From an uncultured Candidatus Rokubacteria bacterium (GTDB lineage: Bacteria; Methylomirabilota; Methylomirabilia; Rokubacteriales; CSP1-6), in NCBI GenBank assembly GCA_963771355.1, contig CAVYTA010000005.1, forward strand, positions 944,121-1,008,120: a stretch of 64,000 bases of DNA, given 5' to 3'. A program made the translations under genes and the position numbers. The stretch's first letter is position 1. Each line of letters opens with the position of its first letter. A model generated the notes under the pieces. The model saw only the letters and a program-made list of their open reading frames with translations, did not search any database and was not told the DNA's origin. Shown one piece after another: positions 44,690 through 61,507 of this stretch.

Positions 44690-44894
44690 GCCGGCCACCC
44701 GGCCGCTAGCATTTCGGTGGCTCCGGCGATGTCGCGCGAGCGCCCGCCGCGTGCTCGCCCAACGCGCTCCGGGTCGCCGCGGGGCATTCTGCTGATCCCT
44801 TCCCGTGTCATCCGACACGGCCGAGAGCTCGCATCTTGTCGGCACGCTTCCGCCGCTTGCTCGAGGCGGCCCCGGAGAAGCCGCGGGAGAACCG

Positions 44895-45866
44895 ATGATG
44901 GAGCGACGCACGTTCTTGGTGCTGGCCTCAGGGAGCTTCCTCACTGCGCCGCTCGTCGTTGCCGCGCAGCCGGTGGGGCAGGTCTACCGGATCGGGTTCC
45001 TGCGCGCGGGCCAGCCGCCAAAGACCTGGATCGAATCCTTTCAGCAAGGCCTACGGGAGCGGGGATACGTGGAGGGCCAGAGCCTCAGCATCGAATACGC
45101 CCTGGCAGATAGCACGGCCCAGCTTCCAACCGTGGTAACCGAACTGGTCCGTCGCAAGGTCGACGTGATCGTCGCGTCGGGGACACCATCGGTTCCGCCC
45201 GCGAAGAGCGCCACGAGCACGATCCCCATCATCTTCGTGGCATCGATCGATCCTGTCGCGACCGGCATGGTCGCCAGCCTGGCGCGCCCGGGCGGAAACG
45301 TGACCGGCCTGGCTGGCATCCACGCCGATCTGATGGGCAAGCGACTGGAGATTGTTCGAGAGACCGTCCCGAAACTCTCCCGCGTGGCGCTCCTATCCCA
45401 CGCGGCCAACCCGGGCAACGCCGAATACGTCAAGCAGGCGCAGCTTGCTGCGCGGACTCTGGGAGTGCAGCTGCAACTGGTGGCGGTTCGCGATGCCGGC
45501 GACTTCGAGCGCGTCTTTAACGAGGCCCGAGCGGCCAACGCCATGATTCAACTGGACGACGTCATCTTCACCTCTCACCGAAGACAGATCGTCGAGCTCT
45601 CGGTGAGGTACCAGCTCCCAGTGATGTACGGCTTCAGAGAGTTCGTCGACGTCGGTGGCCTCATGGCCTATGGTCCGGACTGGCCGGACCTGTACCGACG
45701 TGCCGCCCACCTCGTGGACAGGATCCTGAAGGGCGCCAAGCCGGCCGATCTTCCCATCGAGCAGCCGACCAAGTTCGAGCTGGTCATCAACCTCAAGACC
45801 GCGAAGGCGCTGGGTCTCACGATCCCTCAATCAGTCCTACAGCGGGCGGATCAGGTGATCGAGTGA
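44895..45866 (+). CDS. Orphan ABC substrate-binding protein (COG2984/ABC_sub_bind type)
   Basis: MERRTFL twin-Arg-like leader, YRIGFL, SLARPGGNVTG, GAKPADLPIEQPTKFELVINLKTAKALGLTIP..ADQVIE; no permease or ATPase adjacent. Confidence 0.93.
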   Translation: MMERRTFLVLASGSFLTAPLVVAAQPVGQVYRIGFLRAGQPPKTWIESFQQGLRERGYVEGQSLSIEYALADSTAQLPTVVTELVRRKVDVIVASGTPSVPPAKSATSTIPIIFVASIDPVATGMVASLARPGGNVTGLAGIHADLMGKRLEIVRETVPKLSRVALLSHAANPGNAEYVKQAQLAARTLGVQLQLVAVRDAGDFERVFNEARAANAMIQLDDVIFTSHRRQIVELSVRYQLPVMYGFREFVDVGGLMAYGPDWPDLYRRAAHLVDRILKGAKPADLPIEQPTKFELVINLKTAKALGLTIPQSVLQRADQVIE

Positions 45867-45915
45867 TGGACCGCCGCGCGTTCCTTGGCGCCATCGCCGC
45901 GCCCGGCGAGCGCCT

Positions 45916-46651
45916 TTACGCCACGCCCACGTGAATGCTGACGGTGCCGAGGCCCAGCCGCTGATACTTCACCGCGCGCAGCCCGACCTCGCCCATGAGT
46001 CCCGAGAGCTCCGGGCGGGGTAAGGAAGCGGTCCACCGACTGGGGCAGATAGGTATAGGCCTCACGGTCGCGGGCGATGACGCCGCCGATGCAGGGCACC
46101 ACGCGGTGGAAGTAGAAGCGGAACAGCGGCCGGAAGCCGGGCAGGGTGGCCTGGGTGATCTCGAGCGCCACCACGCGGCCGCCTGGCCGAGTCACGCGCC
46201 GCATCTCGGAGAAGCCCTGGCGCAGGTCGGCCAGGTTCCGCAAGAGAAAGGCCGAGGTCACGCACGCGAAGGTGCGATCGGGGAAGGGGAGCGCGAGGGC
46301 GTCGGCGGCCACGAGCCGCACGCGGTCGCCGGCGCCGATCTCGCGCAGCTTGGACGCCGCCTCGCGGAGCATACCCGGCGCGAAGTCCGCCGCGACGATC
46401 TCGCGATGCGCGTGGAGCTCGCGCAGCTCGAGCGCCAGGTCGCCGGTCCCGGTGGCGAGGTCCAGCGCGGGGCCGTCCGGGGCCGCGATGGTGTGGCGGG
46501 CGGCCACGCGCCGCCACGCGTGGTGCATCCCCAGCGTCATGAGCCCGTTCATGAGGTCGTAGCGGCCCGCGATGCGCGAGAACATGCTGGCCACGAACTG
46601 GGCTTTCTCCGGCCCCGTGCCCAGCGGCGGGCCGCTCATACTCCCACTCAT
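45916..46651 (-). CDS. ubiE: Ubiquinone/menaquinone methyltransferase UbiE/MenG (one frameshift near 46014)
   Basis: MFSRIAGRYDLMN, LDLATGTGD, AYTYLPQSVDRF; removing one base at 46013-15 restores ELSGLMGEVGL...GTVSIHVGVA-TAA. Confidence 0.88.
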
Positions 46652-47496
46652 ACCCAGTATCCCGCCAGCACCGCCGCGAAGAGGATCACCGCGATGTACC
46701 CATTGATGTTGAAGAAGGCCACGTCGAGGCGCGAGAGATCGCCCGGCGAGACCAGGGAGTGCTCGTAGACGAGGAGGCCCGCCACGATCGCGACGCCGGC
46801 CCAGTAGAGGAAACCCAGCCCCATCATCACGCCGAGGGCGGCGAATGCGGCGATGGTGAGGACGTGGCAGACCTTCGCGATGTGCAGCGCGGTGGCCACG
46901 CCGAAGCGCGCGGGCACCGAGTGCAGGCCCTCCGCGCGGTCGAACTCCACGTCCTGGCACGCATAGATCAGGTCGAAGCCGGCGATCCACACCATGAGCG
47001 CGAACCACAGCACGAAGACGGGCGGGTCGAAGCTGCCCCGCACCGCGATCCAGCCACCGGCCGCCGCGATGCCGTCGGTGAAACCCAGGATCCAGTGTGA
47101 CAGCCAGGTGAAGCGCTTGGTATACGAATACCCGATCAGGAAGAGGAGAGCCAGCGGGGAGAGCGCGAGGCACAACGGGTTGAGCCGCCACGCCGAGAGC
47201 AGGAATACCGCACCCGCTGCCACCGCGGCCGCCGTCACCTGGGCGGGCGTGAGCAGTCCCGCGGGCAGGTGCCGGCCGCGGGTGCGGGGATTTCGCGCGT
47301 CGAACCAGCGGTCGGCGAGCCGGTTCACCGCCATGGCCAGCGTGCGGCCGCTGACCATGGCCAGCGTCACCCACCCCACGATGCGAACGTTGGGCCAGCC
47401 GTTGGCAGCGAGCACCATGGCCACGTAGGCGAAGGGCAGCGCAAAGACGGTGTGCTCGAACTTGATGGCATCGAGGAAGTGGCGAATGGAATTCAC
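46648..47496 (-). CDS. ubiA: UbiA-family prenyltransferase (MqnP-like)
   Basis: IKFEHTVFALPFA, NRLADRWFDARNPRT, YSYTKRF, FDLIYACQD. Confidence 0.92.
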   Translation of the reverse strand: MNSIRHFLDAIKFEHTVFALPFAYVAMVLAANGWPNVRIVGWVTLAMVSGRTLAMAVNRLADRWFDARNPRTRGRHLPAGLLTPAQVTAAAVAAGAVFLLSAWRLNPLCLALSPLALLFLIGYSYTKRFTWLSHWILGFTDGIAAAGGWIAVRGSFDPPVFVLWFALMVWIAGFDLIYACQDVEFDRAEGLHSVPARFGVATALHIAKVCHVLTIAAFAALGVMMGLGFLYWAGVAIVAGLLVYEHSLVSPGDLSRLDVAFFNINGYIAVILFAAVLAGYWV

Positions 47497-47502
47497 GGGC
47501 GG

Positions 47503-48957
47503 CTAGAGGCCGTACTCGGCCCAGCGGCGGGTCACGCGCGCGCGGGTCTCCGCATCCATGACGATCTCCTCGGGCCAGGGCTGGCCGATGCCATCCGCGT
47601 CGGTCTTCTCGGTGGCGTCGATGCCGAGCTTGCCGCCGAAGCGGTGCCGGATGGCGGCGTGGTCGAGGTCGTCGGTAGGGCCGTCCACGAGCACGAGATC
47701 GCGCTTGGCGTCCACGTTGCCGGTCGCCCGCCAGGCCACCTCGGAGAGGTTCTGGACGTCCACATGCTCGGACACCACGAGGATATTCTTGGCCAGCATC
47801 ATGAGCCCGAGGCCCCAGAGGGCGTACATGACCTTGCGCGCGTGGCCCGGATACCGCTTCCGGATGGAGACGATCACGAGGTTGTGGAACACGCCCTCGG
47901 CGGGCATGTTCATGTCCACGACCTCCGGGAGCAGCAGGCGGATGATGGGCAAGAAGATCCGCTCGGTGGCCTTGCCCAGCCAGTAATCCTCCTGCGGCGG
48001 CCGGCCCACGATGGTGGTGGGATAGATGGGATGGTTCCGCCGCGTCAGGGCCTGCAAGTGAAACACGGGGTAGTCGCGCGCCAGCGAGTAGTAGCCGGTG
48101 TGGTCGCCGAAGGGCCCTTCGAGGCGCCGCTCCCCCGGATCCACCCAGCCTTCCAGCACGATCTCGGCCTCGGCCGGCACCTCGAGATCCACCGTCTTGC
48201 ACGCCACCATGGGGACCCCGGCGCCGCGCAGCCACCCCGCGAACACCATCTCGTCGACGCCGGGCGGCAGGGGCGCCGAGCCCGAGTAGATCGAGACGGG
48301 ATCGCCGCCGAGCGCGATGGCCACCTCCATCCGCGCGCCGCCGCGCTCCTCGGCCACCCGGTGATGCTCGGCCGAGCCCTTGTGAATCTGCCAGTGCATG
48401 CCGAGCGTCCGCTCGTCGTACACCTGAAGGCGGTACATGCCGACGTTCCGCGCTCCCGTGGCGGGGTCCCGGGTGAACACGAGCGGCAGCGTGATGTAGC
48501 GTCCGGCGTCCCCCGGCCAGCACTGGAGCACGGGGAGGGCGGCGACGCTGGGGTTGGCGGTCTCCACCACCTCCTGGCACGGCGCGGACCGCACGCGCTT
48601 GGGCCCCGCCTTGGCCACGTCGAGGAGAGTGCCCAGCTTGCGGAGCTTCTCGAACAGCGAGCCCGGCATGCGGAGGTCGAGGAGCTTGGCCACGCGGGCG
48701 GACACCTCGTCCAGGCGCTCCACGCCCAGCGCCGCCGCCATGCGCGGCGCGGTGCCGAAGGCGTTGATGAGGACGGGCATCGAAAAGCCCTCGACATTCT
48801 CGAAGAGGAGGGCCTGGTTGCTCTCGGCGGGACCCTTGGACACGCGGTCGGTGATCTCGGTGATCTCGAGGTCGCGCGAGACGGGCGCGCTGATCCGACG
48901 GAGCTGGCCCGTCTTCTCCAGGTGCGCCACGAACTCGCGGAGATCGGCGAAAGCCAC
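47503..48957 (-). CDS. ubiD: UbiD-family (menaquinone biosynthesis) decarboxylase
   Basis: DLREFV, RNVGMYR, MHWQIHK, EGPFGDHTGYY, GRPPQED, KLGIDAT. Confidence 0.95.
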   Translation of the reverse strand: MAFADLREFVAHLEKTGQLRRISAPVSRDLEITEITDRVSKGPAESNQALLFENVEGFSMPVLINAFGTAPRMAAALGVERLDEVSARVAKLLDLRMPGSLFEKLRKLGTLLDVAKAGPKRVRSAPCQEVVETANPSVAALPVLQCWPGDAGRYITLPLVFTRDPATGARNVGMYRLQVYDERTLGMHWQIHKGSAEHHRVAEERGGARMEVAIALGGDPVSIYSGSAPLPPGVDEMVFAGWLRGAGVPMVACKTVDLEVPAEAEIVLEGWVDPGERRLEGPFGDHTGYYSLARDYPVFHLQALTRRNHPIYPTTIVGRPPQEDYWLGKATERIFLPIIRLLLPEVVDMNMPAEGVFHNLVIVSIRKRYPGHARKVMYALWGLGLMMLAKNILVVSEHVDVQNLSEVAWRATGNVDAKRDLVLVDGPTDDLDHAAIRHRFGGKLGIDATEKTDADGIGQPWPEEIVMDAETRARVTRRWAEYGL

Positions 48958-48964
48958 GCGGTTC

Positions 48965-49471
48965 CTACTCGTGGTAGTACAGCTTCACCAGCCAGCCCGC
49001 GAGCACCGGAAAGAGAAAGCTCGAGGCGACCCGTACCGCCACGAAGTGCCAGCCCATCAACGGCGCCTCCCAGGCGATGATCCGCTGCATGCCGAAGAGC
49101 GACCACGACGTCATGTAGGCGACGAGCGGCCCCAGCGCCATGCCGGAGTTGGCGAGCACCACCAGGAGCGGCACGCTCACCATGGGCCCGCCCGGCGTGA
49201 TGACGCCGGCGGCGGAGGCGAGGCAGATCGCGGAGAGGCCCGACTGGGTGCCGAAATAGCGCGCCACCACCTGCTGGGGAATCAGCACCTGGAGCATTCC
49301 GGCGAGGATGAGAGCGGGGATGAGGCGAGGCACGATGAACCACAGCAGCGACAGGCCCGTCTTGGCGCCGATCCAGGGAAGACCGGGATCTTTCCAGTAC
49401 GCGAGGCCCGCGCTGGCGGCGGCAAGGATGACCAGGATGAGCATGGAGAGGTCGACGCCCGTCCGCGCCAT
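48965..49471 (-). CDS. Predicted permease (DUF318/ArsP-like half-size)
   Basis: Hydrophobic; AGVITPGGP, YMTSWS, WEAPLMG..RV. Confidence 0.8.
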   Translation of the reverse strand: MARTGVDLSMLILVILAAASAGLAYWKDPGLPWIGAKTGLSLLWFIVPRLIPALILAGMLQVLIPQQVVARYFGTQSGLSAICLASAAGVITPGGPMVSVPLLVVLANSGMALGPLVAYMTSWSLFGMQRIIAWEAPLMGWHFVAVRVASSFLFPVLAGWLVKLYYHE

Positions 49472-49531
49472 GCGCGCATTATACGTCAGGTGGGCTATAC
49501 TGGCCCCGCTCGGCGACGCGCCGAGCAGCAC

Positions 49532-52471
49532 ATGCGCCGGACGTTTTGGATCGGATCGACCCTCGTTGCGCTTGCCCTGCTCGCGCTGGTGGTCGCGGGG
49601 GTAGTCACGGGTCACTCAGTCGATCCACTCACCCTCGCGCTGGCCGTGGGCGGCCTGACCCTCCTCGCGCTCGGCGCCGCGTGGCGTCTCGCGCGCCGCA
49701 CGCAAGCCGCGATGGCCGCGCACAGCCGGGCCCTCATCGACCTCGGCGCCCGCGAGCAACGCGTCAGCGCCTTCGCCGGGGTCAACGCGGCCCTGGCGCA
49801 GGAGCTCGACGCCGAAGCGCTGCTGCGCCGGATCACGGACACGCTCGCTCAGCTCACCGGCGCTCCCTGCGTGGTGCTCTGGGCGACCGACCTCGCCGGC
49901 CGCCGGCTGGTGCGGCAGGCCTGGACCATGGAGCCCGCGATCGCGCGCCTCAACCTGCCCTACGAGCTGACCTTCGATCAGGGCGCCACCGGCTGGATCG
50001 CGCGTCAGCGCGAAGCCGTCATCATCAGCGACGTGGCGACCGATCCACGCATGCACGCCCCGGCCTGGTGCATTCAGCAGGGGCTCCACGCGTTCGCGGG
50101 CGCGCCCGTCCTCGAGGGCGGCGAGCTGGCGGGCGTGCTGACCCTGAACATGCGCGATATCGACGCGCTGGGCGAGGACGGCCAGACGCTCCTCGTCTCC
50201 TTCGCCGCCCAGGCGGCGCTGGCCATCCGGAACGCCCGGCTCATCTCGGAGGCCCAGAAAAGGCGGCGCGAGGCCGAGGCCCTCGCCGCGCTGGGCCGTC
50301 GGCTCGCCCAGACGCTCGATCCCGAGGCGATGGCCCAGGAGTTGGCGGATAGCCTGCGCGCGCTGCTCGCCACCCGTACCTCCGGCCTCTACCGGCTCGC
50401 CGCCACCGGCGACATCGTCTCGGTGGCCATCTCGGGGGATATCGGCCCCGCCCTTGGGCGGGTGGTCGTGTTTCCGCCCGGCACCGGCGTGGCGGCGCTG
50501 TCCGCGCGCGAGCGCCGGCCGGTGATCACGAACAACCTCCTCACCGACCCGCGCATCACGCTGACCCCCGAGGTGCGGGCGCGTATCGAGCAGGCCGTCT
50601 ACCGCGCCGTCCTCTCCGTGCCGCTGGTGGTGCGGGATGCCGCCATCGGCGCTCTCTCGGTGGGCGATGCTGAGGGTCGCGTGTTCACGCCGGACGACGT
50701 GCGTCTCGCCGAGGCGGTGGCCGATCAGGCGGCGCTCACGCTCGACAACGCGCGGCTCTACGTCGAGGCCACCGGCCGCCGGCGCGAGGCGGAGGAGCTC
50801 GCGCGCGTCGCGCGGAGCCTCACCGAAAGCCTCGACGTGGTGGACGTCGGCCGCCGCATCGTGGACGGTGTCTGCCCGCTGCTCCGCGTCGCCTTCTCGC
50901 GGCTCCGTCTGAAGGACCCCGATGGCTCGCTTCGGGCCATCGCCTGGAGCGGGGCCACTCCGGATCACGTGGGCCCGGACATTCCGCTGCCCGCCGGGGT
51001 GGGGGTGGCGGGGCGCGCGGTGCTGGAGGGCCGGCCGGTGTGGTCGGCGGACTTCGCGCAGGACGCCGACCTCGTCCTCAGCGACCGGCTGCGGGACTAT
51101 GCGGCGCGCAGTGCGGCGCGCTCCGTGCTCGGCGTGCCGCTGCGCGTCCGGGGCGAGATCATCGGCTCGCTGACCGTGGGCGATGAGGTGGGGCGCGTCT
51201 TCGCCGCCTCCGACGTCACCCTGCTCGAGGCCTTCGCGGATCAGGCTGCGCTGGCGCTCGACAACGCCCGACTGTACGAGCAGACGCGCGCCCGGCTCCG
51301 CGCGCTCCAGGAGACCCAGGCCCAGCTCGTCCAGGCGGCCAAGCTCTCCGCGGTGGGCCAGCTCGTCTCCGGCGTGGCGCACGAGCTCAACAACCCCCTG
51401 TCCGTCGTGATCGGCCACGGCCAGCTGATGCTCACCCGAAACCCGGCGCCGGAGATCCGCCGGCCGGTCGAGCTCATCGTGTCACAGGGCGATCGCATGT
51501 CCAAGATCGTCCAGAGCCTCCTTCTCTTCTCCCGGCAGCGCGCGACGGCCCGCGGGGCGGTGGACCTGCCACAGATCCTCGAGCAGACGCTGGTGCTCCG
51601 CGCGGCGCAGCTCCGACTCTCCGGCGTCACCGTCATTGCCGAGCACGAGCCGGGCTTGCCGCCCGCCGACGGAGACGCCCAGCAGCTCCAGCAAGTCATC
51701 CTGAATCTGCTTCTCAACGCGGAGCAGGCCCTGCTCCAGACGCGCAAGGACTTGACGGGGTCTCTCGACGCGGAGCCGCGCCCAGGGGCCCGGATCGTGT
51801 TCCGGACGAGCACGCGCGCGCTGGCCGACCGCGACTGGGTACGCATGGAGGTGGAGGACAACGGCCCCGGCATCGCGCCCGAGGTGCTACCGCGGATCTT
51901 CGAGCCGTTCTTCACCACCAAGGCCGTCGGGCAGGGGACGGGACTGGGGCTCAGCGTGTCCTATGGCATCATCCAGCAGCACGGCGGCCGCCTCACCGCG
52001 CAGAGCGAGTCGGGGTGCACCGTGTTCGCGTTCGAGGTGCCCCGCTGGGTGCCGGGGGCGCCGGCGCCGGTCGTCGCGCCGGAGCCCATCGGCCGCATCG
52101 AGGGGGCGGGGCGCGCCGCGCTGGTGGTGGACGATGAGCCGGAGATCGTGGATCTCGTCGTGACCATCTTGCGCCGGGACGGCTGGAAGGTGGACGTGGC
52201 CGAGGGCGGGCGGAGCGGGCTCGAGCGGGTGCGCGCCGCGCGCTACGATCTCATCGTGTCCGACTTCCGCATGCCCGACGGCGACGGCGAGGCGTTCTAC
52301 CGGGCCGCGGTGGAAGCGCAGCCGGAGCTGATGAGACACTTCCTGTTCATGACCGGCGATACCGCCAACCCCATCGCGTGGCAGTTCCTCCAGGACGCAC
52401 GCATCACCGTCATCGAAAAGCCGTTCTCGCCCGACGCTCTCCGCGCCGCCATCGCACGGCTCGGCTCCTGA
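49532..52471 (+). CDS. Hybrid sensor histidine kinase (2 TM, 3 GAF, HisKA, HATPase, REC)
   Basis: Three GAF repeats ending QAALA..NARL; GVAHELNNPL, NLLLNA, DNGPGI, FEPFFTTK, GTGLGL; VVDDE..SDFRMP..KPF. Confidence 0.95.
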   Translation: MRRTFWIGSTLVALALLALVVAGVVTGHSVDPLTLALAVGGLTLLALGAAWRLARRTQAAMAAHSRALIDLGAREQRVSAFAGVNAALAQELDAEALLRRITDTLAQLTGAPCVVLWATDLAGRRLVRQAWTMEPAIARLNLPYELTFDQGATGWIARQREAVIISDVATDPRMHAPAWCIQQGLHAFAGAPVLEGGELAGVLTLNMRDIDALGEDGQTLLVSFAAQAALAIRNARLISEAQKRRREAEALAALGRRLAQTLDPEAMAQELADSLRALLATRTSGLYRLAATGDIVSVAISGDIGPALGRVVVFPPGTGVAALSARERRPVITNNLLTDPRITLTPEVRARIEQAVYRAVLSVPLVVRDAAIGALSVGDAEGRVFTPDDVRLAEAVADQAALTLDNARLYVEATGRRREAEELARVARSLTESLDVVDVGRRIVDGVCPLLRVAFSRLRLKDPDGSLRAIAWSGATPDHVGPDIPLPAGVGVAGRAVLEGRPVWSADFAQDADLVLSDRLRDYAARSAARSVLGVPLRVRGEIIGSLTVGDEVGRVFAASDVTLLEAFADQAALALDNARLYEQTRARLRALQETQAQLVQAAKLSAVGQLVSGVAHELNNPLSVVIGHGQLMLTRNPAPEIRRPVELIVSQGDRMSKIVQSLLLFSRQRATARGAVDLPQILEQTLVLRAAQLRLSGVTVIAEHEPGLPPADGDAQQLQQVILNLLLNAEQALLQTRKDLTGSLDAEPRPGARIVFRTSTRALADRDWVRMEVEDNGPGIAPEVLPRIFEPFFTTKAVGQGTGLGLSVSYGIIQQHGGRLTAQSESGCTVFAFEVPRWVPGAPAPVVAPEPIGRIEGAGRAALVVDDEPEIVDLVVTILRRDGWKVDVAEGGRSGLERVRAARYDLIVSDFRMPDGDGEAFYRAAVEAQPELMRHFLFMTGDTANPIAWQFLQDARITVIEKPFSPDALRAAIARLGS

Positions 52472-52537
52472 GCGCGACGGAAGCCACTGGCGCGCGTGCG
52501 GGCTTGACTTGGTCCGGTCGATCGATTACCTAGGGGC

Positions 52538-53010: not shown

Positions 53011-53086
53011 GGCCCCATCGTCTAGAGGCCTAGGACACGGCCCTCTCAAGGCTGAAACACGGGTTCGAATCCCGTTGGGGCCACCA
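53011..53086 (+). tRNA. tRNA-Glu(CTC)
   Basis: GGCCCCA/TGGGGCC acceptor, CGGCC-CT-CTC-AA-GGCTG, GTTCGAAT, encoded CCA. Confidence 0.97.
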
Positions 53087-53276: not shown

Positions 53277-53690
53277 ATGCCGGGCCAGCGGGTGCAGAAC
53301 TTCCCGAAGGCGTGGCGCTCCGCGTGTGACCCCGCCGGATGCGCCTGGATGCTCCGGCACGACTTCCGCCGGACGGCGGCGCGGAACATGGTCAACGCAG
53401 GGGTGCCAGAGCGCGTGGCCATGACGGTCATCGGCCACCGAACGCGGTGCGTGTTCGACCGCTACAACATCGTCTCGCCGGCCGAGCAACAGGCGGCGGC
53501 CCGCCTCATCGGGACGGCCAGTGACGAGGCCGTCCGGCGCGTCGCCGCGGCAGCGTCTGTCGTGACGCGACTTGCCCCGAGACTTGACCCTACAGAGGGC
53601 ACGAGCAGGGGGACTGAGGCACGGCGGGGCACAGTAGAGGGACGGGTTATCTCTGCGAAAGTGTTGGAAACAGCGGCGGTCGCGGGCTAG
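53277..53690 (+). pseudogene. Tyrosine integrase C-terminal fragment
   Basis: KAWRSAC, LRHDFRRTAARNM, GVPERVAM..GHRT..VFDRYNIV; N-terminal two-thirds absent. Confidence 0.88.
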
Positions 53691-53823
53691 CGGGTGACCG
53701 CCTCATAACCCAAAGGTCGCTGGTTCAAATCCAGCCCCCGCAACCAACAAACACAAGGGGTTCGGCGCTCTCGCCGAGCCCCTTGTGTGTCTCAGTTGGC
53801 CGACTTGTCCCGAAACTTGTCCC
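53569..53823 (+). other. attP-like site: tRNA-fMet 3' half (53702-53746) flanked by paired arm-type repeats
   Basis: CTCATAACCCAAAGGTCGCTGGTTCAAATCCAGCCCCCGCAACCA without a tRNA 5' half; RACTTGNCCC at 53569, 53581, 53802, 53814; hairpin ACACAAGGGGTTCGGCG/CGCCGAGCCCCTTGTGT at 53751-53788. Confidence 0.8.
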
Positions 53824-54297
53824 TTCGCGGGGGCGACCATGGCGCTGAGCGCCGGGTTCACGGCGCCGATCGTTGATGGCGGCCCTTGGCATGGAAGACG
53901 GAACGGACGATGCGGAGGTATGCGGCAGTGACGGATCAGACTCTCCGGGCGGCGGCGGAGCGTCAGGCACGCGCCCGAGCCGCCGATCCTCGGCCAAAGT
54001 CGAGACGCGAAACTCGCGGAGGACGTGCGCCCGGTCGGCGTTGGCGGCGGCGAAGAGTGTGTGGGGATCGGCCTCGGAGAGGGCCTCGCCCGAGTCGAAG
54101 CCGTGCATGAGGGCGAACGCGCCAAGCCGGAGGGTGAACCCATCGTCCAGGGCCCGCACCCGTCCGGCCCAGTCGTCGAAGCAGCGAGTTACTTCAGGCT
54201 GGTGAAGCATCCAATCGACGACGTCTCCATGCAGCCCCGAGCGGTCAGTGTCGAAGAAGAGGTCGGCGGGCTGGGGTGTCGCCTCGTCCTCCATCAC
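53725..54297 (-). CDS. Hypothetical protein; 3' part probably read-through into antisense integrase/att DNA
   Basis: GTGA overlap with upstream gene; protein-like composition for the first ~110 aa only. Confidence 0.45.
   Translation of the reverse strand: MMEDEATPQPADLFFDTDRSGLHGDVVDWMLHQPEVTRCFDDWAGRVRALDDGFTLRLGAFALMHGFDSGEALSEADPHTLFAAANADRAHVLREFRVSTLAEDRRLGRVPDAPPPPGESDPSLPHTSASSVPSSMPRAAINDRRREPGAQRHGRPREGTSFGTSRPTETHKGLGESAEPLVFVGCGGWI
53830..53965 (+). pseudogene. Second tyrosine integrase C-terminal remnant (frameshifted)
   Basis: Across frames: GATMALSAGFTAPIV/MAALG/WKTERTMRRYAAVTDQTLRAAAE (box II with catalytic Tyr). Confidence 0.65.
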
Positions 54298-54608
54298 CGT
54301 TTCCCCCCGCGCGTCGCGCCCGGCGCGATCTGCCCCGAACCCGTCCGATTCCCCTTGGTGTCGTAGAGGTCGATCCGCCCGCCCTTGTCGATGGTCCCGT
54401 AGCCCGTCCGGTTGCTGGACTTGTCGTAGAAATCCACGCGCTCGCCCTTTTTGTCGATGATGGCGGAGCCCGTCCTGTTGCTGGATTTGTCGAAGAGGTC
54501 AACGCGGGTCTCGGCGGGGCGCTCGTCGGCGAGGGCGGGGGCGGCGAGCGCAACGAGACCGAGCATCAGGCTCCCGGCGAGCGCGAGTCCCTGCCGTCCG
54601 TCAGTCAT
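54294..54608 (-). CDS. Secreted small protein with three ~21-aa beta repeats
   Basis: Signal peptide; RVDLFDKSSNRTG / RVDFYDKSSNRTG / RIDLYDTKGNRTG; TATAAT and AGGAGG upstream. Confidence 0.8.
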   Translation of the reverse strand: MTDGRQGLALAGSLMLGLVALAAPALADERPAETRVDLFDKSSNRTGSAIIDKKGERVDFYDKSSNRTGYGTIDKGGRIDLYDTKGNRTGSGQIAPGATRGGKR

Positions 54609-54784
54609 TTGTGCCCTCCTGAGAGCATTATAGTCCCCGGCCAGTGGTGGCCCGGCAGACGCGCCGGGCGTGATCAGATGGTCTCAAGGATCCTGCGCCC
54701 GAGCTTGCGATCTCTACCGGACGATGGAACCCTTGACACAGGGTATATGGTCGTCGTGCTGAGGCGACCTTTGGAGGCCCGCGG

Positions 54785-54812
54785 TTTGGCTCACAGCTTT
54801 GGCTCACAGCTT
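54785..54812. repeat. 13-bp tandem direct repeat (integrase arm-site-like)
   Basis: TTTGGCTCACAGC x2 plus TT. Confidence 0.6.
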
Positions 54813-54862
54813 AGATGGTATTGGGGGGCCCGACTCATTCGGGGCGGTAGCGGAGCGGCAGC

Positions 54863-55603
54863 ATGCGCATGATGGCTATCTTGCTCACCACGCTCTTCTT
54901 GCTCGCTGTCACGCATGCCGGCCCCCCCGCCGCACAGGACCGGCATTCGGCGCAGCGCGCGCGTATGGTGGCAGAAATCGCCGCAATGGCGCGCGAGACC
55001 GGCAGCGCTACCGGACGGCCGAGTTTCAGCCAGGCGGTGATGACAGTAATGGGAAGAGTCCCGCGCCATCGGTTCGTGCCTCCGCTCCAGCAGACTTTCG
55101 CTTACGAGAACCGAGCGCTCCCCATCGCTGAAGGGCAGACGATCTCGCAACCTTTCCTTGTCGCGCTGATGACGGACCTGCTTGATCCGAAGCCAAGCGA
55201 CACCGTGCTGGAAGTCGGCACCGGCTCGGGCTATCAGGCCGCGGTCCTCGCGGGACTTGTGGCGAAGGTCTACACCATCGAGATCGTCGAACCGCTCGGC
55301 AGGCGAGCGATGCAGCTCCTCGATGAGCTCGGCTATCGTAATGTCGAGGTGCGCATCGGCGACGGCTACAATGGCTGGCCCGAAGCGGCGCCTTTCGATT
55401 CAATCGTTGTCACAGCGGCTCCGGCGGAGATCCCGACCCCCCTGATCGACCAGCTCAAGCGCGGCGGCCGAATGGTGATCCCGGGCGGAACCTCTGACAT
55501 GCAGTATCTTCTGCTCGTGGAAAAGCGGCCGGATGGCACTATCACAACGAGGCGTACGCTCCCGGTGAGGTTCGTGCCCTTCACGAGAGATCGTGCGAAA
55601 TAG
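54863..55603 (+). CDS. pcm: Protein-L-isoaspartate O-methyltransferase with signal peptide
   Basis: VPRHRFVP, GQTISQP, VLEVGTGSGYQAAVL, APFDSIVVTAA, GGRMVIP, VRFVP. Confidence 0.95.
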   Translation: MRMMAILLTTLFLLAVTHAGPPAAQDRHSAQRARMVAEIAAMARETGSATGRPSFSQAVMTVMGRVPRHRFVPPLQQTFAYENRALPIAEGQTISQPFLVALMTDLLDPKPSDTVLEVGTGSGYQAAVLAGLVAKVYTIEIVEPLGRRAMQLLDELGYRNVEVRIGDGYNGWPEAAPFDSIVVTAAPAEIPTPLIDQLKRGGRMVIPGGTSDMQYLLLVEKRPDGTITTRRTLPVRFVPFTRDRAK

Positions 55604-55696
55604 GGCCTTAAAGTCTTCAGCATCGTTTGGGTGTAGGTCGGTTGAGCGCCGGAGACCCACTTCCAGCCAGTTAGCCCGCTCGAAGATCACCGTGCT

Positions 55697-56112
55697 ATGA
55701 GCAAGCTGGAGAGGCCGATGATCGATCGGTACTGGGAGAAGGTTGGTGGCACTTTGATTCGTGAGTTCCAAGCGGTGCCTCGCTCTCCGGCGTCGGACGG
55801 CGCTTGCTCGATGCTGTCATTCTGCCAGCCCTCCCGCGCGAGGTGGCTCATTGGCGCGAAGTCAGTCTCGCTGGTCAGCGCGTCATCGTGGTGCAAGCGA
55901 AGGCGTCTCGCCTGGGAATGTACTTGATGGGCCAGGCGATCTTCTCGGCAGAGCTTGTCCGAACCCGGTTCGCTCCGGCAAGCCTTCGCTCGGTGATTCT
56001 ATGTTCCAAGGACGACAGGGTGTTGCGACCATACTTGGTCTCGTATCCGGAGGTCGAGGTCGTCATTGATGAAGCCGCGCCCGTGTTGCCATCGGAAGAG
56101 GAGACGGGCTAA
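55697..56112 (+). CDS. PD-(D/E)xK-like putative nuclease carried in a gene cassette (frameshift near 55790)
   Basis: MSKLERPMIDRYWEKVGGTLIREF joins GRRLLDAVIL...VIVVQAKASRLGMYLMGQ if one G is added at 55789-90; D..QxK..GQ pattern. Confidence 0.6.
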
Positions 56113-56160
56113 CATCGGGCTCGACCGGGCCGGCTGACGCCGTCAGCCTGACCGTTAGAC
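56107..56160 (+). other. Integron attC site
   Basis: R'' GGCTAAC (contains the TAA stop), L'' GGCTCGAC, L' GTCAGCC (pairs with one extra C in L''), R' GTTAGAC; R'' is the exact complement of GTTAGCC at 55670-76 upstream of the ORF. Confidence 0.8.
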
Positions 56161-56167
56161 ACATGGG

Positions 56168-56377
56168 ATGACGGAGGGGAGCATGCCTCAGGTACCAGCG
56201 CGGCAGATGCTCGACGAGGCCCTGAGGGATTTTCGGAAGGCGCTCGTCCAGCAGGGCGTCTATCCAGCTGATCACCAGAACCTGGACCGCGCGTACAGCG
56301 GGGCAAAGGATTTCGTCGATTTCCTCCTTGATGGTCCGACCGTCCTTCGAAAGCACCGGATCCGGAAGAACGCGTGA
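56168..56377 (+). CDS. Hypothetical protein (start of next cassette or phage-like small ORF)
   Basis: Begins just after the attC R' site; GGAGGG SD before the second ATG. Confidence 0.5.
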   Translation: MTEGSMPQVPARQMLDEALRDFRKALVQQGVYPADHQNLDRAYSGAKDFVDFLLDGPTVLRKHRIRKNA

Positions 56378-56469
56378 GGCGACCTCGGGTGCACTTCGTT
56401 GCGACCCGGGACGATATCCTTCGAAACGTCCGGGGCCTTCATGGCCTGAGCCGGTCGGCGAGCCAAAAC

Positions 56470-56736
56470 GAGCGCGAGCACTCACTGCCTGTCATCTCGC
56501 TGTACAAGGACTTCGCCGAGGCCGGGGGCCTCCTCGGCTACGGGGCGAGTCCCCCTGCCATATACCGGCGCTCAGCGTACTACGTGGATCGAATCCTCAA
56601 GGGTGCCAAGCCCGGAGATCTCCCCGTCGAGCAGCCGACGAAGTTCGACCTAATCATCAACCTCAAGACCGCCAAAGCGCTCGGCCTCACCATCCCGCCG
56701 TCGGTCCTGCCGCGGGCGGATCAGGTGATCGAGTAG
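56470..56736 (+). pseudogene. C-terminal fragment of COG2984-type substrate-binding protein
   Basis: LPVISLYKDFAEAGGLLGYG...GAKPGDLPVEQPTKFDLIINLKTAKALGLTIP..ADQVIE; 5' part missing. Confidence 0.85.
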
Positions 56737-56916
56737 CCCGTGCTCGACCAACGGGGCCGACTCCCGCGGACCGGACTCGGATTCGCCACTCTCTCCATGC
56801 CCTCGTAATGACTGTGCGCTCTGTGCTCTCATCGCTAGCATTGGACGGGTTACGGTGGCAACAGGCCACCAAGGCTACCCCTAGCTTACCGGCGTTAGGC
56901 TGTGGCTGGAGAGACG

Positions 56917-57441
56917 ATGATGACTCAGTTCAGCATCAAAAACAGAGTTGAGCAGAACGTTACGGTCTGGCTGCTGGGTACGCTGCTTACAGGATTTCTC
57001 TCCGGCATCGGTGTGTACCGCGCAGTCCAGGATATGGCAGGACTCGGAGTAGTCGCAGTCGCGGATCTGGAGAACTTGAAGCGACAGATCGCTGAGCTGG
57101 AGCAAAAGTTGGTGGCCTCGGAGAAGCGTGCGGCAACCGCCACCGCGCAAGCCAAGCAGGCCTCTTGGGCGGTCCGAGGCACCCAAGTAACCGTATTGCA
57201 CGCGGAACGCAACATTGAGGCGGCCATTGAAATCAAGGAGCGCCTCGCCACTTTAGGAGCCGTAGTTATGCTCAAGCCACAGGAAGCCGCAGAACACGCG
57301 GGGAAGCTGTATTACGGAGCGGATAGTCGCGACGCGGCGATGCAAATAAAAGCAATCGTCTCCGACATTGCATTGGCCCACCTCGCGGAAAGTCGTGAGC
57401 ATCGACCGGGCGTTGTTACCCTTTGGTTACTGCGCAGGTGA
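56917..57441 (+). CDS. Membrane-anchored coiled-coil protein with LytR_C-like C-terminal domain
   Basis: TM VWLLGTLLTGFLSGIGVY, heptad region, VTVLH...LYYG...VVTLWL; atypically low GC; GTTAGGC core-like site at 56894. Confidence 0.65.
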   Translation: MMTQFSIKNRVEQNVTVWLLGTLLTGFLSGIGVYRAVQDMAGLGVVAVADLENLKRQIAELEQKLVASEKRAATATAQAKQASWAVRGTQVTVLHAERNIEAAIEIKERLATLGAVVMLKPQEAAEHAGKLYYGADSRDAAMQIKAIVSDIALAHLAESREHRPGVVTLWLLRR

Positions 57442-57487
57442 CTAGGATGCCGAGTCGGTGTTGACAGAGTGATACCTGATAGATAAC

Positions 57488-57688
57488 ATGTCCCCGAAGA
57501 GATTCGCCGTGCGACTCAGGACACTCCGCCTCAAGAAGAACCTGACGCAGGCCGCGCTGGCCAAGAAGGCCGGCGTGACTCGCGGCTACCTGGCGCGCCT
57601 CGAGATGGGCCGGCACGACCCGCCGCTTTCGCGTTTGCGGAAGTTGGCTAAGGCCCTCGGCGTGCCGCTGGCGGAGTTGCTGGGATGA
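57488..57688 (+). CDS. XRE/Cro-type HTH regulator
   Basis: LRTLRLKKNLTQAALAKKAGVTRGYLARLEMGRHDPPL..LAKALGV; TTGACA at 57461. Confidence 0.92.
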   Translation: MSPKRFAVRLRTLRLKKNLTQAALAKKAGVTRGYLARLEMGRHDPPLSRLRKLAKALGVPLAELLG

Positions 57689-57918
57689 ATCGCGCCATCT
57701 GTCTCAGCCTCGCCGCCCTCCTCACCACGAGCAGTGCGGCAGGGTGCGCCGTCGACGTCGCCGCGACCTGCAAGGCCTCGGGCGGCACGTATACGGTGGA
57801 GGGAACGTGTACTCAATATGGTCCGAGCCAGCAGGCGGCGAGGGATAGATGCTCAGCTAGCGGGGGCGTGTATTTCGTGGACAGCAACGCTTGCATACTT
57901 GGCAGCGGGGGACCGTGA
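57685..57918 (+). CDS. Small Cys-rich lipoprotein
   Basis: Signal peptide with AAGC lipobox; two CxASGGxY..C repeats; ATGA overlap with the HTH gene. Confidence 0.75.
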   Translation: MNRAICLSLAALLTTSSAAGCAVDVAATCKASGGTYTVEGTCTQYGPSQQAARDRCSASGGVYFVDSNACILGSGGP

Positions 57919-57948
57919 TGACCTTTGACGGAGCGACCTTGAGACCAG

Positions 57949-58043
57949 AGCGCCCCCGGCCGCGTTGCCGCGCGACCGAGGGCTTGGCCGATTAACCCTA
58001 ACCGGCGAGGCGAGAATCAATGGCCACCGCTACGGTAGCACGC
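57949..58043 (-). ncRNA. Candidate ~95-bp structured element/antisense sRNA, copy 1
   Basis: Homologous to 59727-59820; hairpin CCCCCGGCCGCG..CGCGACCGAGGG and TGcTACCGT extended -10 on the opposite strand. Confidence 0.4.
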
Positions 58044-58068
58044 TCCCGCCCGCGCTGCGCCGGGCGAC

Positions 58069-58315
58069 GTGATCCCCGACGCCCGCGAGCTTCACCGCGT
58101 CATCACCGCCAGCGTGCACGAGCTGCTGGAGACCGCCCGGCTCGAGGCGCAGGCCGGCCCGATGGACGTGGCCGAGATCGAGCGCCTCATCTTCCGCGCC
58201 GCCGCGCCCATCGTCCAGCAGCGTGGCGTCGTTGACCGAGGCGCAGCGCGGCGAGCTGCTCCCGAATATCGTCCGCGTGATGTTGGCGGCGTTCCTCGAG
58301 GAGCAAGCGCGATGA
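58069..58315 (+). pseudogene. 81-aa helical ORF, copy 1 (+1 indel near 58219)
   Basis: VIPDARELHRVITASVHELLETARLEAQAGP...; paralogues at 59463-59706 and 62071-62315. Confidence 0.75.
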
Positions 58316-58708
58316 GAGCCGCCGCTGCCGCGTTTCGCCTACGACGTCAACGCGGGATCTCGCGCGGCCCCTCGAGGGGCGGGGGAATGGCGTTGAGTAG
58401 AGTCGGATCTTGGTCGTGGTCTACGCTCCGGCTCGGGGACAGCATCTGTTCGATCAGGAGCCAGAGTGGAAGCGAGAGCACTACCACATGCGCGATCAGC
58501 TCTTTGATCACCATGCCTTCATGTCGCCGCACCTCCTGCGGATGTCATGCCGGCCCCGGTCGTCATCGTCCCTTCCTCACCTCCGGGGCTGCCCCCGTAT
58601 AGCACGCGTGGCTCCGCATTTAAACCCTCGAAAGGTTACGAGACGATGATCCCCGCCATCTACGCCCACAAACGCACCGACCGAGAGTAGGGAGGGGCCG
58701 TGATGCCG

Positions 58709-58812
58709 CTACTTCTCGCGGACTCGCTTCAACCCTCGCTCGATCGCGGGCACGGCGCCCTGCGCGCCCTCGCGCGATTGAGCGCGGGTTGAAGCGAGCG
58801 CGCGAGAAGTAG
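58709..58812. repeat. 40-bp-arm inverted repeat made of two gene 3' ends
   Basis: 58709-58748 vs reverse complement of 58773-58812: 36/40 identical; each arm encodes an IERGLKR(V/A)REK* tail like the end of ORF 62759-63031. Confidence 0.75.
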
Positions 58813-59048
58813 TCCACACGCGCAGTTTGTTCTGCAACGCTGTATTTGCAGACGGCCTCGATCCTCCTCGATCCCCGCGGCAGGCATATGCATATGGTGT
58901 CGGGAGCTTTGACAACGGCGGCCCAGGGCGATTCCATCCACTCCGAAAGCTCTCACCACCGCAGGCGTTTCTGTTCAGGCATTCAGCTTGCTTGAAAGTA
59001 ATCGGAGTGTACTGAGCAGCGGGGGATCCCCCGCGGAAGGAGTTGCCT

Positions 59049-59342
59049 ATGCGTGTGGTCTATCGGCTGTTTGTGCTGCTGGTAGTCGCGCTTCTCGTGC
59101 TCGTGCCCGTTGGCGTAAGTTACGCAGCGGGAAGCGGCGGCGGCTCGGGGTCCGGAAGCGGTGGCCCAGGAGGGGGGGCCGGCGGCGGCTCGGGGTCCGG
59201 TGGTGGTAGCGGGAGCGGAGGCGGTGGAGCCGGCGGCGGGGGCGGCTCGGGGTCTGGCGGGCCCGGTGGTGGCAGCGGGTCCGGCGGCGGTAGCGGGGGC
59301 GGTGCGGGAGTTGGTGGGAGTGGCGGAGGAGGCTCGCTCTAG
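59049..59342 (+). CDS. Secreted Gly/Ser-rich low-complexity protein
   Basis: SD GGAAGGAG; signal peptide ending VSYA; mature part ~70 aa almost only G/S/A/P. Confidence 0.75.
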   Translation: MRVVYRLFVLLVVALLVLVPVGVSYAAGSGGGSGSGSGGPGGGAGGGSGSGGGSGSGGGGAGGGGGSGSGGPGGGSGSGGGSGGGAGVGGSGGGGSL

Positions 59343-59462
59343 TCGCGAACGTCCCTTCGAGTCCGCTCACATCCACAAGCGTCGGGAGGTGTTCAGCCCC
59401 GGCGCTTGTGGCGCTTCTTCGACCGAAGTAGCGCGTGGTCGGGACGCCGCCGACGGCGGTTG

Positions 59463-59706
59463 TCATCGCGCTTGCTCCTCCAGGAAGGCCGCCAACATCA
59501 CGCGGACGATATGCGGGAGCAGCTCGCCGCGCTGCGCCTCGGTCAACGGCGCCACGCTGTGGACGATGGGCGCGGCGGCGCGGAAGATGAGGCGCTCGAG
59601 CTGGGCCTCGTCCACCGGGCCGGCCTGCGCCTCGAGCCGGGCGGTCTCAGAGCTCGCGCACGCTGGCGGTGATGACGCGGTGAAGCTCGCGGGCGTCGGG
59701 GGTCAC
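59463..59706 (-). pseudogene. 81-aa helical ORF, copy 2 (2-nt deletion near 59648)
   Basis: VTPDARELHRVITASVREL/../TARLEAQAGPVDEAQLERLIFRAAAPIV...FLEEQAR*. Confidence 0.75.
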
Positions 59707-59726
59707 GTCACCCTGCCATGTCGCGG

Positions 59727-59820
59727 GCGTGCTACCGTAGTCATGGCCATCGATGCTTTCCTTCCCAGGGTGAGATTGATCGGCTACAGCCTCGGTCGCG
59801 TTCGCGCGGCCGGGGGCGCT
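59727..59820 (+). ncRNA. Candidate ~95-bp structured element/antisense sRNA, copy 2
   Basis: GTGCTACCGT extended -10, then ends in CCTCGGTCGCG-TTCG-CGCGGCCGGGG hairpin followed by CTTCT. Confidence 0.4.
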
Positions 59821-59821
59821 T

Positions 59822-60076
59822 CTATATCGACCAGCGAATCCCCTTCCTAATGCGAAGTCGCAACGCATTCGCTGATACGGTCTTGGAGAATCCTGTTGGC
59901 CGTGTTCCGGTCAAAACTCTGTCTTCGCCACGACGCTTCATCGCTTCCTCCGCGAACACCATGCAAAACTCCATGCGCTCAAACTGGAATATCCACCGAT
60001 GGAGAAGGAAGCCGCCGACGAAGCCGACGGGGAGGGAGAGCACGACCGCGAGAACTACGGCCCACCGCCGAGTCAT
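59822..60076 (-). CDS. Small membrane protein
   Basis: N-terminal TM (WAVVLAVVLSLPVGFVGGFLL); ATGA overlap with the upstream HTH tail. Confidence 0.55.
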   Translation of the reverse strand: MTRRWAVVLAVVLSLPVGFVGGFLLHRWIFQFERMEFCMVFAEEAMKRRGEDRVLTGTRPTGFSKTVSANALRLRIRKGIRWSI

Positions 60077-60329
60077 CCCAGCAACTCCGTCACCGGCACC
60101 TTCAGGGCGCGGGCGAGGCTGTTCAGCGTGCTCAGCGGGGGGTTCTGTCCTTCGACGTATCCGTGGTCGCGCAAACCTTGCCGGACCGCCTCCGTGTAAT
60201 TGACAGCCGGAGTGTTGGGGAATGGCTGAAGGACGCCGACGCGATACACCTTCCCCGCCTGCTGCGCCTCCGCGGCGAGCGGCGCGGCGAGGAGCGCCGA
60301 GCAGTGCCGAGGAACGCCCGCCGGTCCAT
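60073..60329 (-). pseudogene. Chimera: N-terminus of substrate-binding protein fused to C-terminus of XRE HTH
   Basis: MDRRAFLG../LLAAPLAAEAQQAGKVYRVGVL..GLRDHGYVEGQN|PPLSTLNSLARALKVPVTELLG*. Confidence 0.75.
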
Positions 60330-61322
60330 CACTCGATCACCTGATCCGCCCGCGCCAGCAGCGACGGCGGGATCGTCAGGCCGAGCGCCTTCGCGGTCTT
60401 GAGGTTGATCACCAGCTCGAACTTCGTCGGCTGCTCGACGGGCAGGTCGCCGGGCTTGGCGCCCTTGAGAATCTTGTCCACGTAGGTAGCGGCGCGCCGA
60501 TACAAATCAGCAAGGTTCGGTCCATAGGCCATAAGGCCCCCGGCATCGACAAACTCCCTCCATGGGTACACTGCCGGCAGCCGGTTCTTTGCCGCCAGGT
60601 CCACGAGGCGTCTTCGCTCACTGATGAACATGGCGCTTGGCAGCACAGTCAGAGCACCCGCGCGCGCCCTGGTCATGTCCGAGAAGGCCCTGTCGAAATC
60701 GGCGGGACCTCGCGCCTCAACGAATTGAAGCCGCACCCCCAGCGCCCGCGCCGCGACTTCTGCTGCCTTCAGCATGTCCTTTTCCGTGCGTTCGCCGAGA
60801 GCCACCTGGCTGCCAGAGGACAGCGACCCGACTGACCCCCGGAACGGCCTGCTTGAGCAGTTCCAGACACTTGCCGACTAGCTCCGGGGCGAGGACGGAC
60901 AACCCCGTGACATTGCCGCCCGGCCGCGCAAGGCTGGTGACGAGCCCGCTCGTCAACCGGATCGGCAGCAGCAGCGAAGACAATGGGGAGGGTCCTGGTC
61001 GCTTGCTTGGCGGCCAGGGCGGCGAGTGTGCCTCGCGGCCACGATGACATCAACCTTGAGCGCAACCAGTTCGGCCGCAAGAGCGGGGAGCCGCTCGAGC
61101 TTCCCCTCGGCATCTCGGTATTCGATCACGACGTTGCGGCCCTCGACGTAACCGAGGTCACGCAGTCCTTGGCGGAAGGCCTCTTGCAGGTGGGGGCTAG
61201 CGGCCAGGTTGCCCGCCAGGTAGCCTATTCGAGCGACCTTGGCCGCCTGCTGCGCCTCGGCGGCGAGCGGCGCGGCGAGGAGACTCCCTGGGATCATCGC
61301 TGAGGAAGGTGCGTCGCTCCAT
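60329..61322 (-). pseudogene. COG2984-type substrate-binding protein with about four frameshifts
   Basis: Pieces in ORFs 61197, 60953, 60769, 60717 and 60329 assemble into a full-length MERRTFL...ADQVIE protein. Confidence 0.85.
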
Positions 61323-61507
61323 CACGGGTCCTCCCTCAGCTTCTCCAGTGCCGCCTCGAGCAGCGCCCGGATCTCCGCGTCGCGCTTCCGCCGGGCCTCG
61401 GCCTTCCGCTGCCGGCTCCGGGCGGCCCGACACCGGCCGCTGCAGACCTCCTGGCCGGCGTGGATCGGCACCTTCTGGCAGACGGGGCATAGCCGGGAGG
61501 CTAGCAC
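61322..61507 (-). CDS. Small Zn-finger/coiled-coil phage-like protein
   Basis: CPVC..VCSGRC followed by basic helix; stop overlaps the ATG of the binding-protein gene. Confidence 0.65.
   Translation of the reverse strand: MLASRLCPVCQKVPIHAGQEVCSGRCRAARSRQRKAEARRKRDAEIRALLEAALEKLREDP

Follow-up and report, generated by a model that had tools for sequence, protein, structure and literature searches.

PF04392 binding-protein genes as probably exchangeable cargo of tRNA-associated mobile elements in Rokubacteria, with a candidate role in sensing

We analyzed the last 64 kb of contig C5 (hereafter the window) in G000, the genome of an uncultured Candidatus Rokubacteria bacterium (5.5 Mb in 8 contigs, 99.8% complete), with a focus on its genes of the PF04392 (COG2984-type) family of substrate-binding proteins. 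Other G-numbers denote related genomes and L-numbers loci read in relatives or metagenomes; the order-level comparison set comprised 41 genomes. We propose that these genes are cargo of mobile elements associated with tRNA genes, that their middles are swapped between constant ends, and that the encoded proteins are detectors for a shared dCache kinase, not transporter parts. Mobility and exchange are very probable; the reading as a whole, drawn from sequence data, is in our view moderately likely.

Insertion, elements, and probable exchange of cores

The intact gene starting at 44895 (Table 1) is a true insertion in core DNA. It is absent from all 7 congeners, where the queE-side and ubiE-side flanks adjoin, and six empty sites, five belonging to congeners, were read completely; the original prediction had suggested searching for such sites between the 44414 gene and ubiE. 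Homology to the empty site stops near 44745 on the left and restarts at 45890 on the right. This right junction lies at the start codon of a 35-codon hydrophobic open reading frame (ORF), of which G000 keeps the start region and which is still present in L003 (G003:C12) between ubiE and the terminator, a terminator-like hairpin being present behind the 44414 gene in relatives. The event therefore replaced a short stretch. The gene has 64% G+C, versus 69-73% in its neighbors, and short-read contigs from several independent studies bridge both junctions (44664-45782, 45858-45968, and 45844-46992). No att site or clear target duplication was found at the insertion. A 9-nt direct repeat was discarded as a target duplication because its right copy lies in sequence common to G003, and a local inversion of the zinc-finger (Zn-finger) gene at 44824-44855 was discarded as not significant (162 of 1000 shuffles). 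The 44414 gene is conserved between queE and ubiE, matches nothing in Pfam or NCBIfam, and is missing there in G001 and G004.

The inserted segment carries the marks of an element. The junction before the gene had been predicted to match that of a Zn-finger gene in the island at the end of the window, and 44858-44915 and 61305-61362 indeed form a 58-nt inverted repeat of 86% identity. The 43 nt located 5' of the 44895 start have their best whole-genome match at E 1e-5, and the matches covering the junction are tails of Zn-finger genes. The junction between the tail of one unit and the head of another, also predicted, is a motif occurring 13 times in G000, and all five pieces of the family expected in the window were found. 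The deposition of single units with neighbor stubs in the core genome recurs in congeners (9 loci examined, picked from junction matches). In G003, uvrA is immediately preceded by a unit with a decayed tail of the Zn-finger gene, for which G000 has an empty site (window ~6695-6705); G005 holds a bare tail-plus-head stub, and further arrays or units lie between core genes in G003, G002, and G004. In a search for an empty site of the copy at C5:14709, congeners matched its right flank only. A decayed binding-protein tail is also present at G000 C6:804600-804680, between two genes of a tripartite ATP-independent periplasmic (TRAP) transporter; at this place G003 holds two intact units.

G000 contains more than 40 pieces of the family. 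A tblastn search gave 46 matches at E 1e-5 and 48 rows at 1e-3, three of which are one locus; the latter set underlies all counts out of 48. An element-type junction is present in 17 of these matches, a recurrent element gene lies within 6 kb of 19, and 23 have either feature. A tRNA gene is found within 6 kb of 11/48, such zones making up 6.7% of the genome. The checks proposed at the outset, i.e., recurrence of the flanks and association with integrases, tRNAs, and the Zn-finger gene, thus came out in favor of mobility, with the same junctions in relatives and metagenomes and with elements that have an integrase and a Zn-finger slot.

These elements have a recurrent order: terminase region, unknown gene, Zn-finger gene, cargo slot, helix-turn-helix (HTH) gene, the recurrent genes VIPD and MTRS, integrase, and tRNA repeat. 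The most complete copy in G000 (C6:683936-698225, 14.3 kb) lies between a 42-nt repeat of the 5' half of tRNA-Val and the complete tRNA gene; its products include a large terminase, a replication initiator, and a primase-DnaB helicase. The copy in G040 encodes a primase-polymerase (Prim-Pol), an excisionase-like HTH protein (HTH_17), and an intact integrase. The replication module is absent from the decayed copies of the window. Terminase-bearing copies also occur in L135 (a metagenome contig) and L288 (G006). The 5' half of the tRNA is duplicated, with the element upstream of the intact gene, at tRNA-Val (42 nt; C6:683894-683935 and 698226-698301) and tRNA-Arg (52 nt; L082, G002), whereas the tRNA-Glu island duplicates the 3' half. 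The large terminase gene of G000 lies at C6:689050-690141, and neither its element nor L135 or L288 has a recognizable capsid or portal. Behind the terminase of L135 come genes for a phage-type glycosyltransferase, identified as such and not as a portal or capsid by Atlas, and for a 2OG-Fe(II) oxygenase. Small ORFs before the terminase had no PHROG match, most small element genes were without a match in PHROGs or Pfam, Atlas had no match for the VIPD protein, and GTDB contigs searched with the terminase gave none either.

Tandem arrays of binding-protein genes occupy a fixed position in these elements, in line with the original prediction. The gene directly behind the Zn-finger gene encodes a binding protein at 7 of the 13 Zn-finger loci in relatives, and behind 11 of the 15 close metagenomic homologues with room for one, versus 1 of 37 distant homologues, some of these distant ones being followed at once by the HTH gene. 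The DNA junction between the Zn-finger and binding-protein genes is strongest within the genus. Array units overlap stop-to-start, with no attC site between them. The slot may carry alternative cargo, a soluble multi-GAF histidine kinase (G000 C7:687462-690700, C6:681315, and C6:29331; L027, G005), and at C5:14600 a fusion joins a kinase of this type to a binding-protein tail. The expansions of the kinase and of the binding protein share a vehicle.

The units were said to have conserved ends and divergent middles, which holds, with one correction concerning the proteins. Across 13 element-type copies of G000, the identity of four-fold sites amounts to 0.63 for codons 1-25 and to 0.60 for codons 276-323, versus 0.34-0.41 between them, where composition alone predicts 0.33-0.40 (46 end versus 124 middle columns, p 1e-11, the columns not being independent). 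The conservation of protein ends is partly family-wide, being seen also in 3LFT and 3LKV, and it is the silent-site conservation that marks these copies. The median core protein identity among element-type copies is 40%. Similarity among heads follows slot position (0.77 and 0.86 for the same position, 0.69 across positions), and that among cores does not (0.51-0.53).

The 44895 head is 82% like that of another first-slot copy of G000, while the middle bins of the same pair reach only 35-65%. Genes of G034 and G037 match its core at 73-75% and its head at 40-49%, and its tail is closer to element paralogues. Another copy of G000 shares a core 88-100% identical with a metagenomic copy, their heads being 65% identical, and 351 nt downstream are 98% identical between two G000 copies whose cores are ~50% identical. 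At the orthologous tRNA-Lys slots of G000 and G006, the flanks, heads, and tails agree and the cores differ; at the tRNA-Arg slot, also orthologous, G002 has about six units versus one plus a remnant in G000. The incongruence of heads and cores requires recombination, and the alignments show the units to be mosaics. In G002 (L085), a relative of the 44895 core and its neighbor are each followed by an attC-like hairpin, which suggests that cores pass between integrons and element arrays. The gradient of silent identity fits an order-wide pool or a lineage-wide nucleotide constraint alike, and weighs against purely within-genome homogenization. When contigs of other organisms are counted at 95% identity or more, the coverage depth of the constant tail and head (window 45707-45907) reaches hundreds to thousands, versus 8-19 for the core; the constant ends are shared widely in soil communities.

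Missing transporter and receptor linkage

The 44895 protein matches PF04392 at 165 bits (cut-off 25.9). Its structural model has a predicted local distance difference test score (pLDDT) of 95.7 and superposes on 3LFT, 3LKV, and 6HNI at template modeling (TM) scores of 0.89-0.93 (0.92 for 3LFT), so that the predicted structure has the type I periplasmic binding fold. The protein falls short of the TrpX-type profile NF041285 (138 of 390 bits); the canonical Salinivibrio control is also under this cut-off (289), which is therefore narrow. Element heads carry RRxFL, presumably the twin-arginine motif, and TatC is present in G000. Certain transporter-type motifs, which we take to line the cleft of this fold, are replaced and hypervariable in 75 sequences of the expanded clade and nearly fixed in the 13-member receptor-cognate clade. 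The proteins of 3LFT, 3LKV, and 6HNI bind Trp, Phe, and Tyr (PMC6816091, PMC10443332). The ratio of nonsynonymous to synonymous substitution rates (dN/dS), a further check proposed at the outset, is 0.15-0.24 for the 44895 core versus three relatives in another family, and 0.15-0.38 over the six core pairs measured, which indicates that the 44895 core is under purifying selection.

The family is present in all 41 genomes, with 1 to at least 44 matches each. As had been noted for the pieces in the window, it stands apart from transporter genes: none of the 48 matches has a PF02653 permease within 3 kb, and a Pfam scan of 87 genes neighboring the copies gave no permease of this family. We used as single permease query the canonical protein of an annotated Salinivibrio operon (E 1e-10). 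It failed to identify a cognate permease in G000 or in 24 family relatives, and found partners in 4 of the 41 genomes, all four in another family. For the cognate ATPase, also searched with a single query, the best G000 matches are only 31-35% identical. By these searches, the genome has lost the family's own permease.

Immediately ahead of one dCache-HAMP-GAF receptor in G000 lies a binding-protein copy (C6:309294). The genome encodes another receptor kinase of this family (C6:1255499), which is stand-alone and adjoins two response regulators. The receptor family occurs in 31 of the 41 genomes, and in 17 of 30 receptor loci the gene immediately ahead of the receptor encodes a binding protein. 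On alphaproteobacterial plasmids, the same dCache family has a binding-protein gene within 2 kb in 4/4 loci, hand-picked from 54 records; the receptors there are fused to a cyclase or kinase, and one of the binding-protein genes, from Rhizobium, overlaps a dCache-HAMP-cyclase gene. The linkage is thus seen in Rokubacteria and Alphaproteobacteria, and not for the window's own copies. A quick PF04392 tree, in which most inner branches have no support, sets a vertical cognate clade apart from a star-like one of 77 members, which contains the mobile copies as well as three receptor-adjacent ones, including the Rhizobium gene. Copy number and receptor number correlate across the 41 genomes (Spearman 0.61, from the best ~43 scored candidates), to which we give little weight because kinship and completeness confound the correlation and copy counts are bounded.

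The receptor alignment is without YxxxxRxWY, the amino-acid motif of dCache domains (PMC8915833). This absence is in keeping with indirect sensing. A fold search with the receptor domain gave generic dCache matches only. That binding proteins signal via dCache domains is established (PMC8050422). Considering the presence of a dCache receptor beside the family in two phyla, sensing is the likeliest role, and it is moderately likely that the proteins are detectors. The non-transport role proposed in the original prediction therefore keeps its sensing part, through the missing permease and the dCache linkage, and loses decoy and exclusion, for which we found no evidence.

The tRNA-Glu island of the window

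The second half of Table 1 lists an island that starts at tRNA-Glu and probably continues on contig C6, which carries an intact integrase of 373 aa and, behind it, a repeat of the final 46 nt of tRNA-Glu. It is a pile of decayed element copies in both orientations. The DNA of its first array unit (60329-61322) is ~90% identical to that of an intact copy from a metagenome, and short-read contigs (at least 90% identity) show indels at several frameshift places of this unit, for which paralogous contigs could be an alternative source. A one-base insertion in ubiE/menG (window 46012-46016), absent from short-read contigs of several studies, is an assembly error. Together with the indels at the island, this suggests that other frameshifts in G000 may be long-read errors. 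The island also includes a 1.9-kb block (window 53702-55613) that opens with 60 nt copied from the 3' end of tRNA-Met and is 99% identical to G000 C7:761865-763777, the start of the tRNA-Met island; it is a recent move between islands. A small ORF at window 59050-59342, with a signal-like start and a long Gly/Ser repeat, is also present in the tRNA-Val element.

Table 1. Features at the 44895 insertion and in the tRNA-Glu island (window positions)
Feature	Position	Strand	Remark
Host gene, 91 aa, no Pfam match; left flank of insertion site	44414..44689	+	
Inserted segment of ~1.14 kb, absent in congeners	44746..45889	+	First ~110 nt without assigned origin
Decayed tail of element Zn-finger gene	44858..44897	+	Overlaps binding-protein start codon
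Intact PF04392 gene, 323 aa, twin-arginine-type leader	44895..45866	+	Mosaic with a first-slot element head, a foreign core, and an element-type tail
Stub with the initial 8 codons of next array unit	45866..45889	+	Cut at right junction
Host ubiE/menG methyltransferase, right flank	45916..46639	-	One-base assembly indel
tRNA-Glu(CTC), left end of island	53011..53086	+	Last 46 nt repeated at G000 C6:3884-3929 behind intact integrase
Tyrosine integrase, C-terminal fragment	53277..53690	+	
Tail-only remnant of binding-protein unit	56470..56736	+	
Xre-type HTH gene	57488..57688	+	After cargo slot in these elements
VIPD, recurrent element gene	58069..58315	+	Further copies 59454-59716 (-), 62071-62315 (+)
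Truncated head of second array unit	60143..60329	-	
First array unit behind Zn-finger gene, frameshifted in assembly	60329..61322	-	Three reading frames needed
Zn-finger gene, 61 aa, weak DUF2116 treble-clef match	61322..61507	-	Marks cargo slot
Recurrent element gene upstream of Zn-finger gene	61636..62031	-	No family match
MTRS, recurrent element gene adjoining integrase	62759..63070	-	
Tyrosine integrase, frameshifted	63269..64000	+	Runs off contig end

Mechanism, alternatives, and known systems

In the mechanism that we propose, elements integrate at tRNAs and would be moved by helper phages. Homologous recombination in the ~75-nt head and the ~140-nt tail would swap cores and alter the number of units, and cores could also enter from integron cassettes. 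Single units with ragged neighbor stubs would reach core sites by illegitimate fragment capture or by decay of an element around a selected gene. End-joining capture is possible since Ku and LigD genes are present in G000. Selection would keep some of the deposited units. Twin-arginine translocation (Tat) would bring the folded proteins to the periplasm. There, once loaded with its ligand, a protein would engage the dCache domain, and the signal would pass via HAMP and GAF to the kinase. More tentatively, satellite-like elements and integrons may together circulate dozens of ligand-binding cores in a constant head-and-tail frame and reshuffle them by recombination in its ends, all plugging into one conserved dCache kinase, so that exchanging one secreted protein would give a cell a new chemical sense. 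As part of the same tentative reading, this mobile sensor library may be a bacterial counterpart of a diversified receptor repertoire.

Several observations weigh against this proposal. More than half of the family matches in G000 (25/48) lack any link to an element, and many array units are truncated or frameshifted. No capsid gene was recognized in the elements, viral contigs searched with two single-protein queries hold no relative of the Zn-finger or the primase-helicase protein, and no excision joint is found among the joints listed. The raised silent identity of the ends is also seen in other families of the order (0.59/0.54) and in integron-type copies (0.55/0.48), and reaches baseline only versus two alphaproteobacterial genes (0.28/0.30), so that a lineage-wide nucleotide constraint could contribute. 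Concerning the receptor, only 11 of 80 GTDB loci, those whose receptor is nearest to the stand-alone one, have a binding-protein gene immediately ahead of it. Three genomes that are at least 90% complete have 2, 11, and 21 copies and no receptor match. The receptor beside C6:309294 has its own vertically inherited partner clade, and the mobile copies may thus not be needed there.

The genes could be mobile and their products feed ABC importers in trans, through branched-chain or sugar-type permeases, thereby widening nutrient uptake. The 71 PF02653 permease matches of G000 could accept such proteins, the same fold is known from transporter binding proteins that have aromatic amino acids bound (PMC6816091), and nutrient cargo on tRNA-targeted elements is known from tycheposons (bioRxiv 2020.12.28.424599). 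Import in trans nevertheless appears unlikely, given that the own permease was not found in G000 and the 24 family relatives, the lack of PF02653 genes within 3 kb of the 48 matches, and a sole recurrent neighbor, in two phyla, that is a signaling receptor. A further account, to which we give slightly less credit, is that the arrays are largely selfish or neutral, with repeated ends driving amplification and scatter and most copies useless. Many units are indeed stubs, internally deleted, or frameshifted, and core DNA bears head-only and tail-only scars, but some frameshifts may be long-read errors like that of ubiE, and the 44895 gene has stayed intact under a low dN/dS while its Zn-finger stub decayed. 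RNA-library contigs from one run also cover 44850-45018 and 45147-45392, with possible DNA carry-over, which was uncontrolled.

The accessory slot of satellite-like elements and the variable middles would suit periplasmic decoys, sponges, or phage-exclusion factors that vary by an arms race. This is improbable, since selection in the six pairs is purifying and not diversifying, the variation sits in cleft loops, the receptor linkage would be left unexplained, and a curated phage collection holds only distant PF04392 copies (<30% identical). A local misassembly between paralogues, named in the original prediction among the things that would refute it, could draw on the indel errors of the assembly and on the contig end inside the island. 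It is refuted for 44895 by the bridging short-read contigs, whose evidence does not extend to the island's internal order, and the same junctions in other genomes and metagenomes make it hardly credible as a general explanation.

Cargo mobility with sensing through a dCache kinase, which we prefer, draws on known kinds of systems, namely satellite-like cargo elements and binding-protein/dCache sensing. The aromatic amino-acid binders of PF04392/COG2984 (SP1069, 3LFT; VC_1101, 3LKV; CD0873, 6HNI; TrpX) share the family and the fold, but the proteins described here have no permease/ATPase operon, a twin-arginine-type leader, variable pocket motifs, and tens of copies per genome. As in LuxP-LuxQ, HptA-HptS, NspS-MbaA, and CBP-ChiS, a binding protein is encoded beside a dCache receptor with varied outputs (PMC8050422). 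These known pairs are one-to-one and chromosomal, whereas here 1-4 receptors face 10-40 or more mobile mosaic binding proteins; PF04392 does not appear in the table of binding protein-receptor pairs in the accessible part of that source.

Phage-inducible chromosomal islands (PICIs) and tycheposons, as described in bioRxiv 2020.12.28.424599, are likewise 10-20 kb long, with a tyrosine integrase, tRNA-derived attachment repeats, a primase/helicase, and a packaging gene, and likewise show cargo, tandem integration, and decayed remnants. In common with PICIs, our elements combine an integrase with tRNA repeats at 10-20 kb (42-nt tRNA-Val; 46-nt tRNA-Glu), a replication module of their own, and regulators. 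They differ in having a large terminase, not a recognized small terminase or capsid, in the duplication of the tRNA 5' half in several copies, and in a cargo that is a tandem array of paralogues. The integrase reads outward into the attachment repeat, contrary to the orientation in tycheposons. Integron cassettes and clusters of attC sites lacking integron-integrases (CALINs) also consist of exchangeable units in arrays, and the same cores are found in attC-flanked cassettes; the units described here overlap stop-to-start, and exchange would use homology in the coding ends, not an integron integrase.

Our literature search, thin on subscription papers and without supplements, found nothing on a PF04392 expansion, on these elements, or on a PF04392-dCache pairing. 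New here are the element family, its fixed slot, the empty sites, and the exchange of cores. The locus points to a family of Rokubacteria elements not found described in the literature searched, and shows by its empty sites how element cargo gets fixed in core operons. PF04392 proteins are annotated as parts of amino-acid transporters, and these genomes hold up to 40 or more of them without the transporter; hence, metabolic reconstructions of this abundant soil lineage likely misread them. If the proteins are detectors for a shared kinase, they would form a many-to-one sensing system reshuffled by horizontal transfer. Soluble 32-kDa proteins with variable pockets would then be a natural library of ligand binders and of parts for biosensors.

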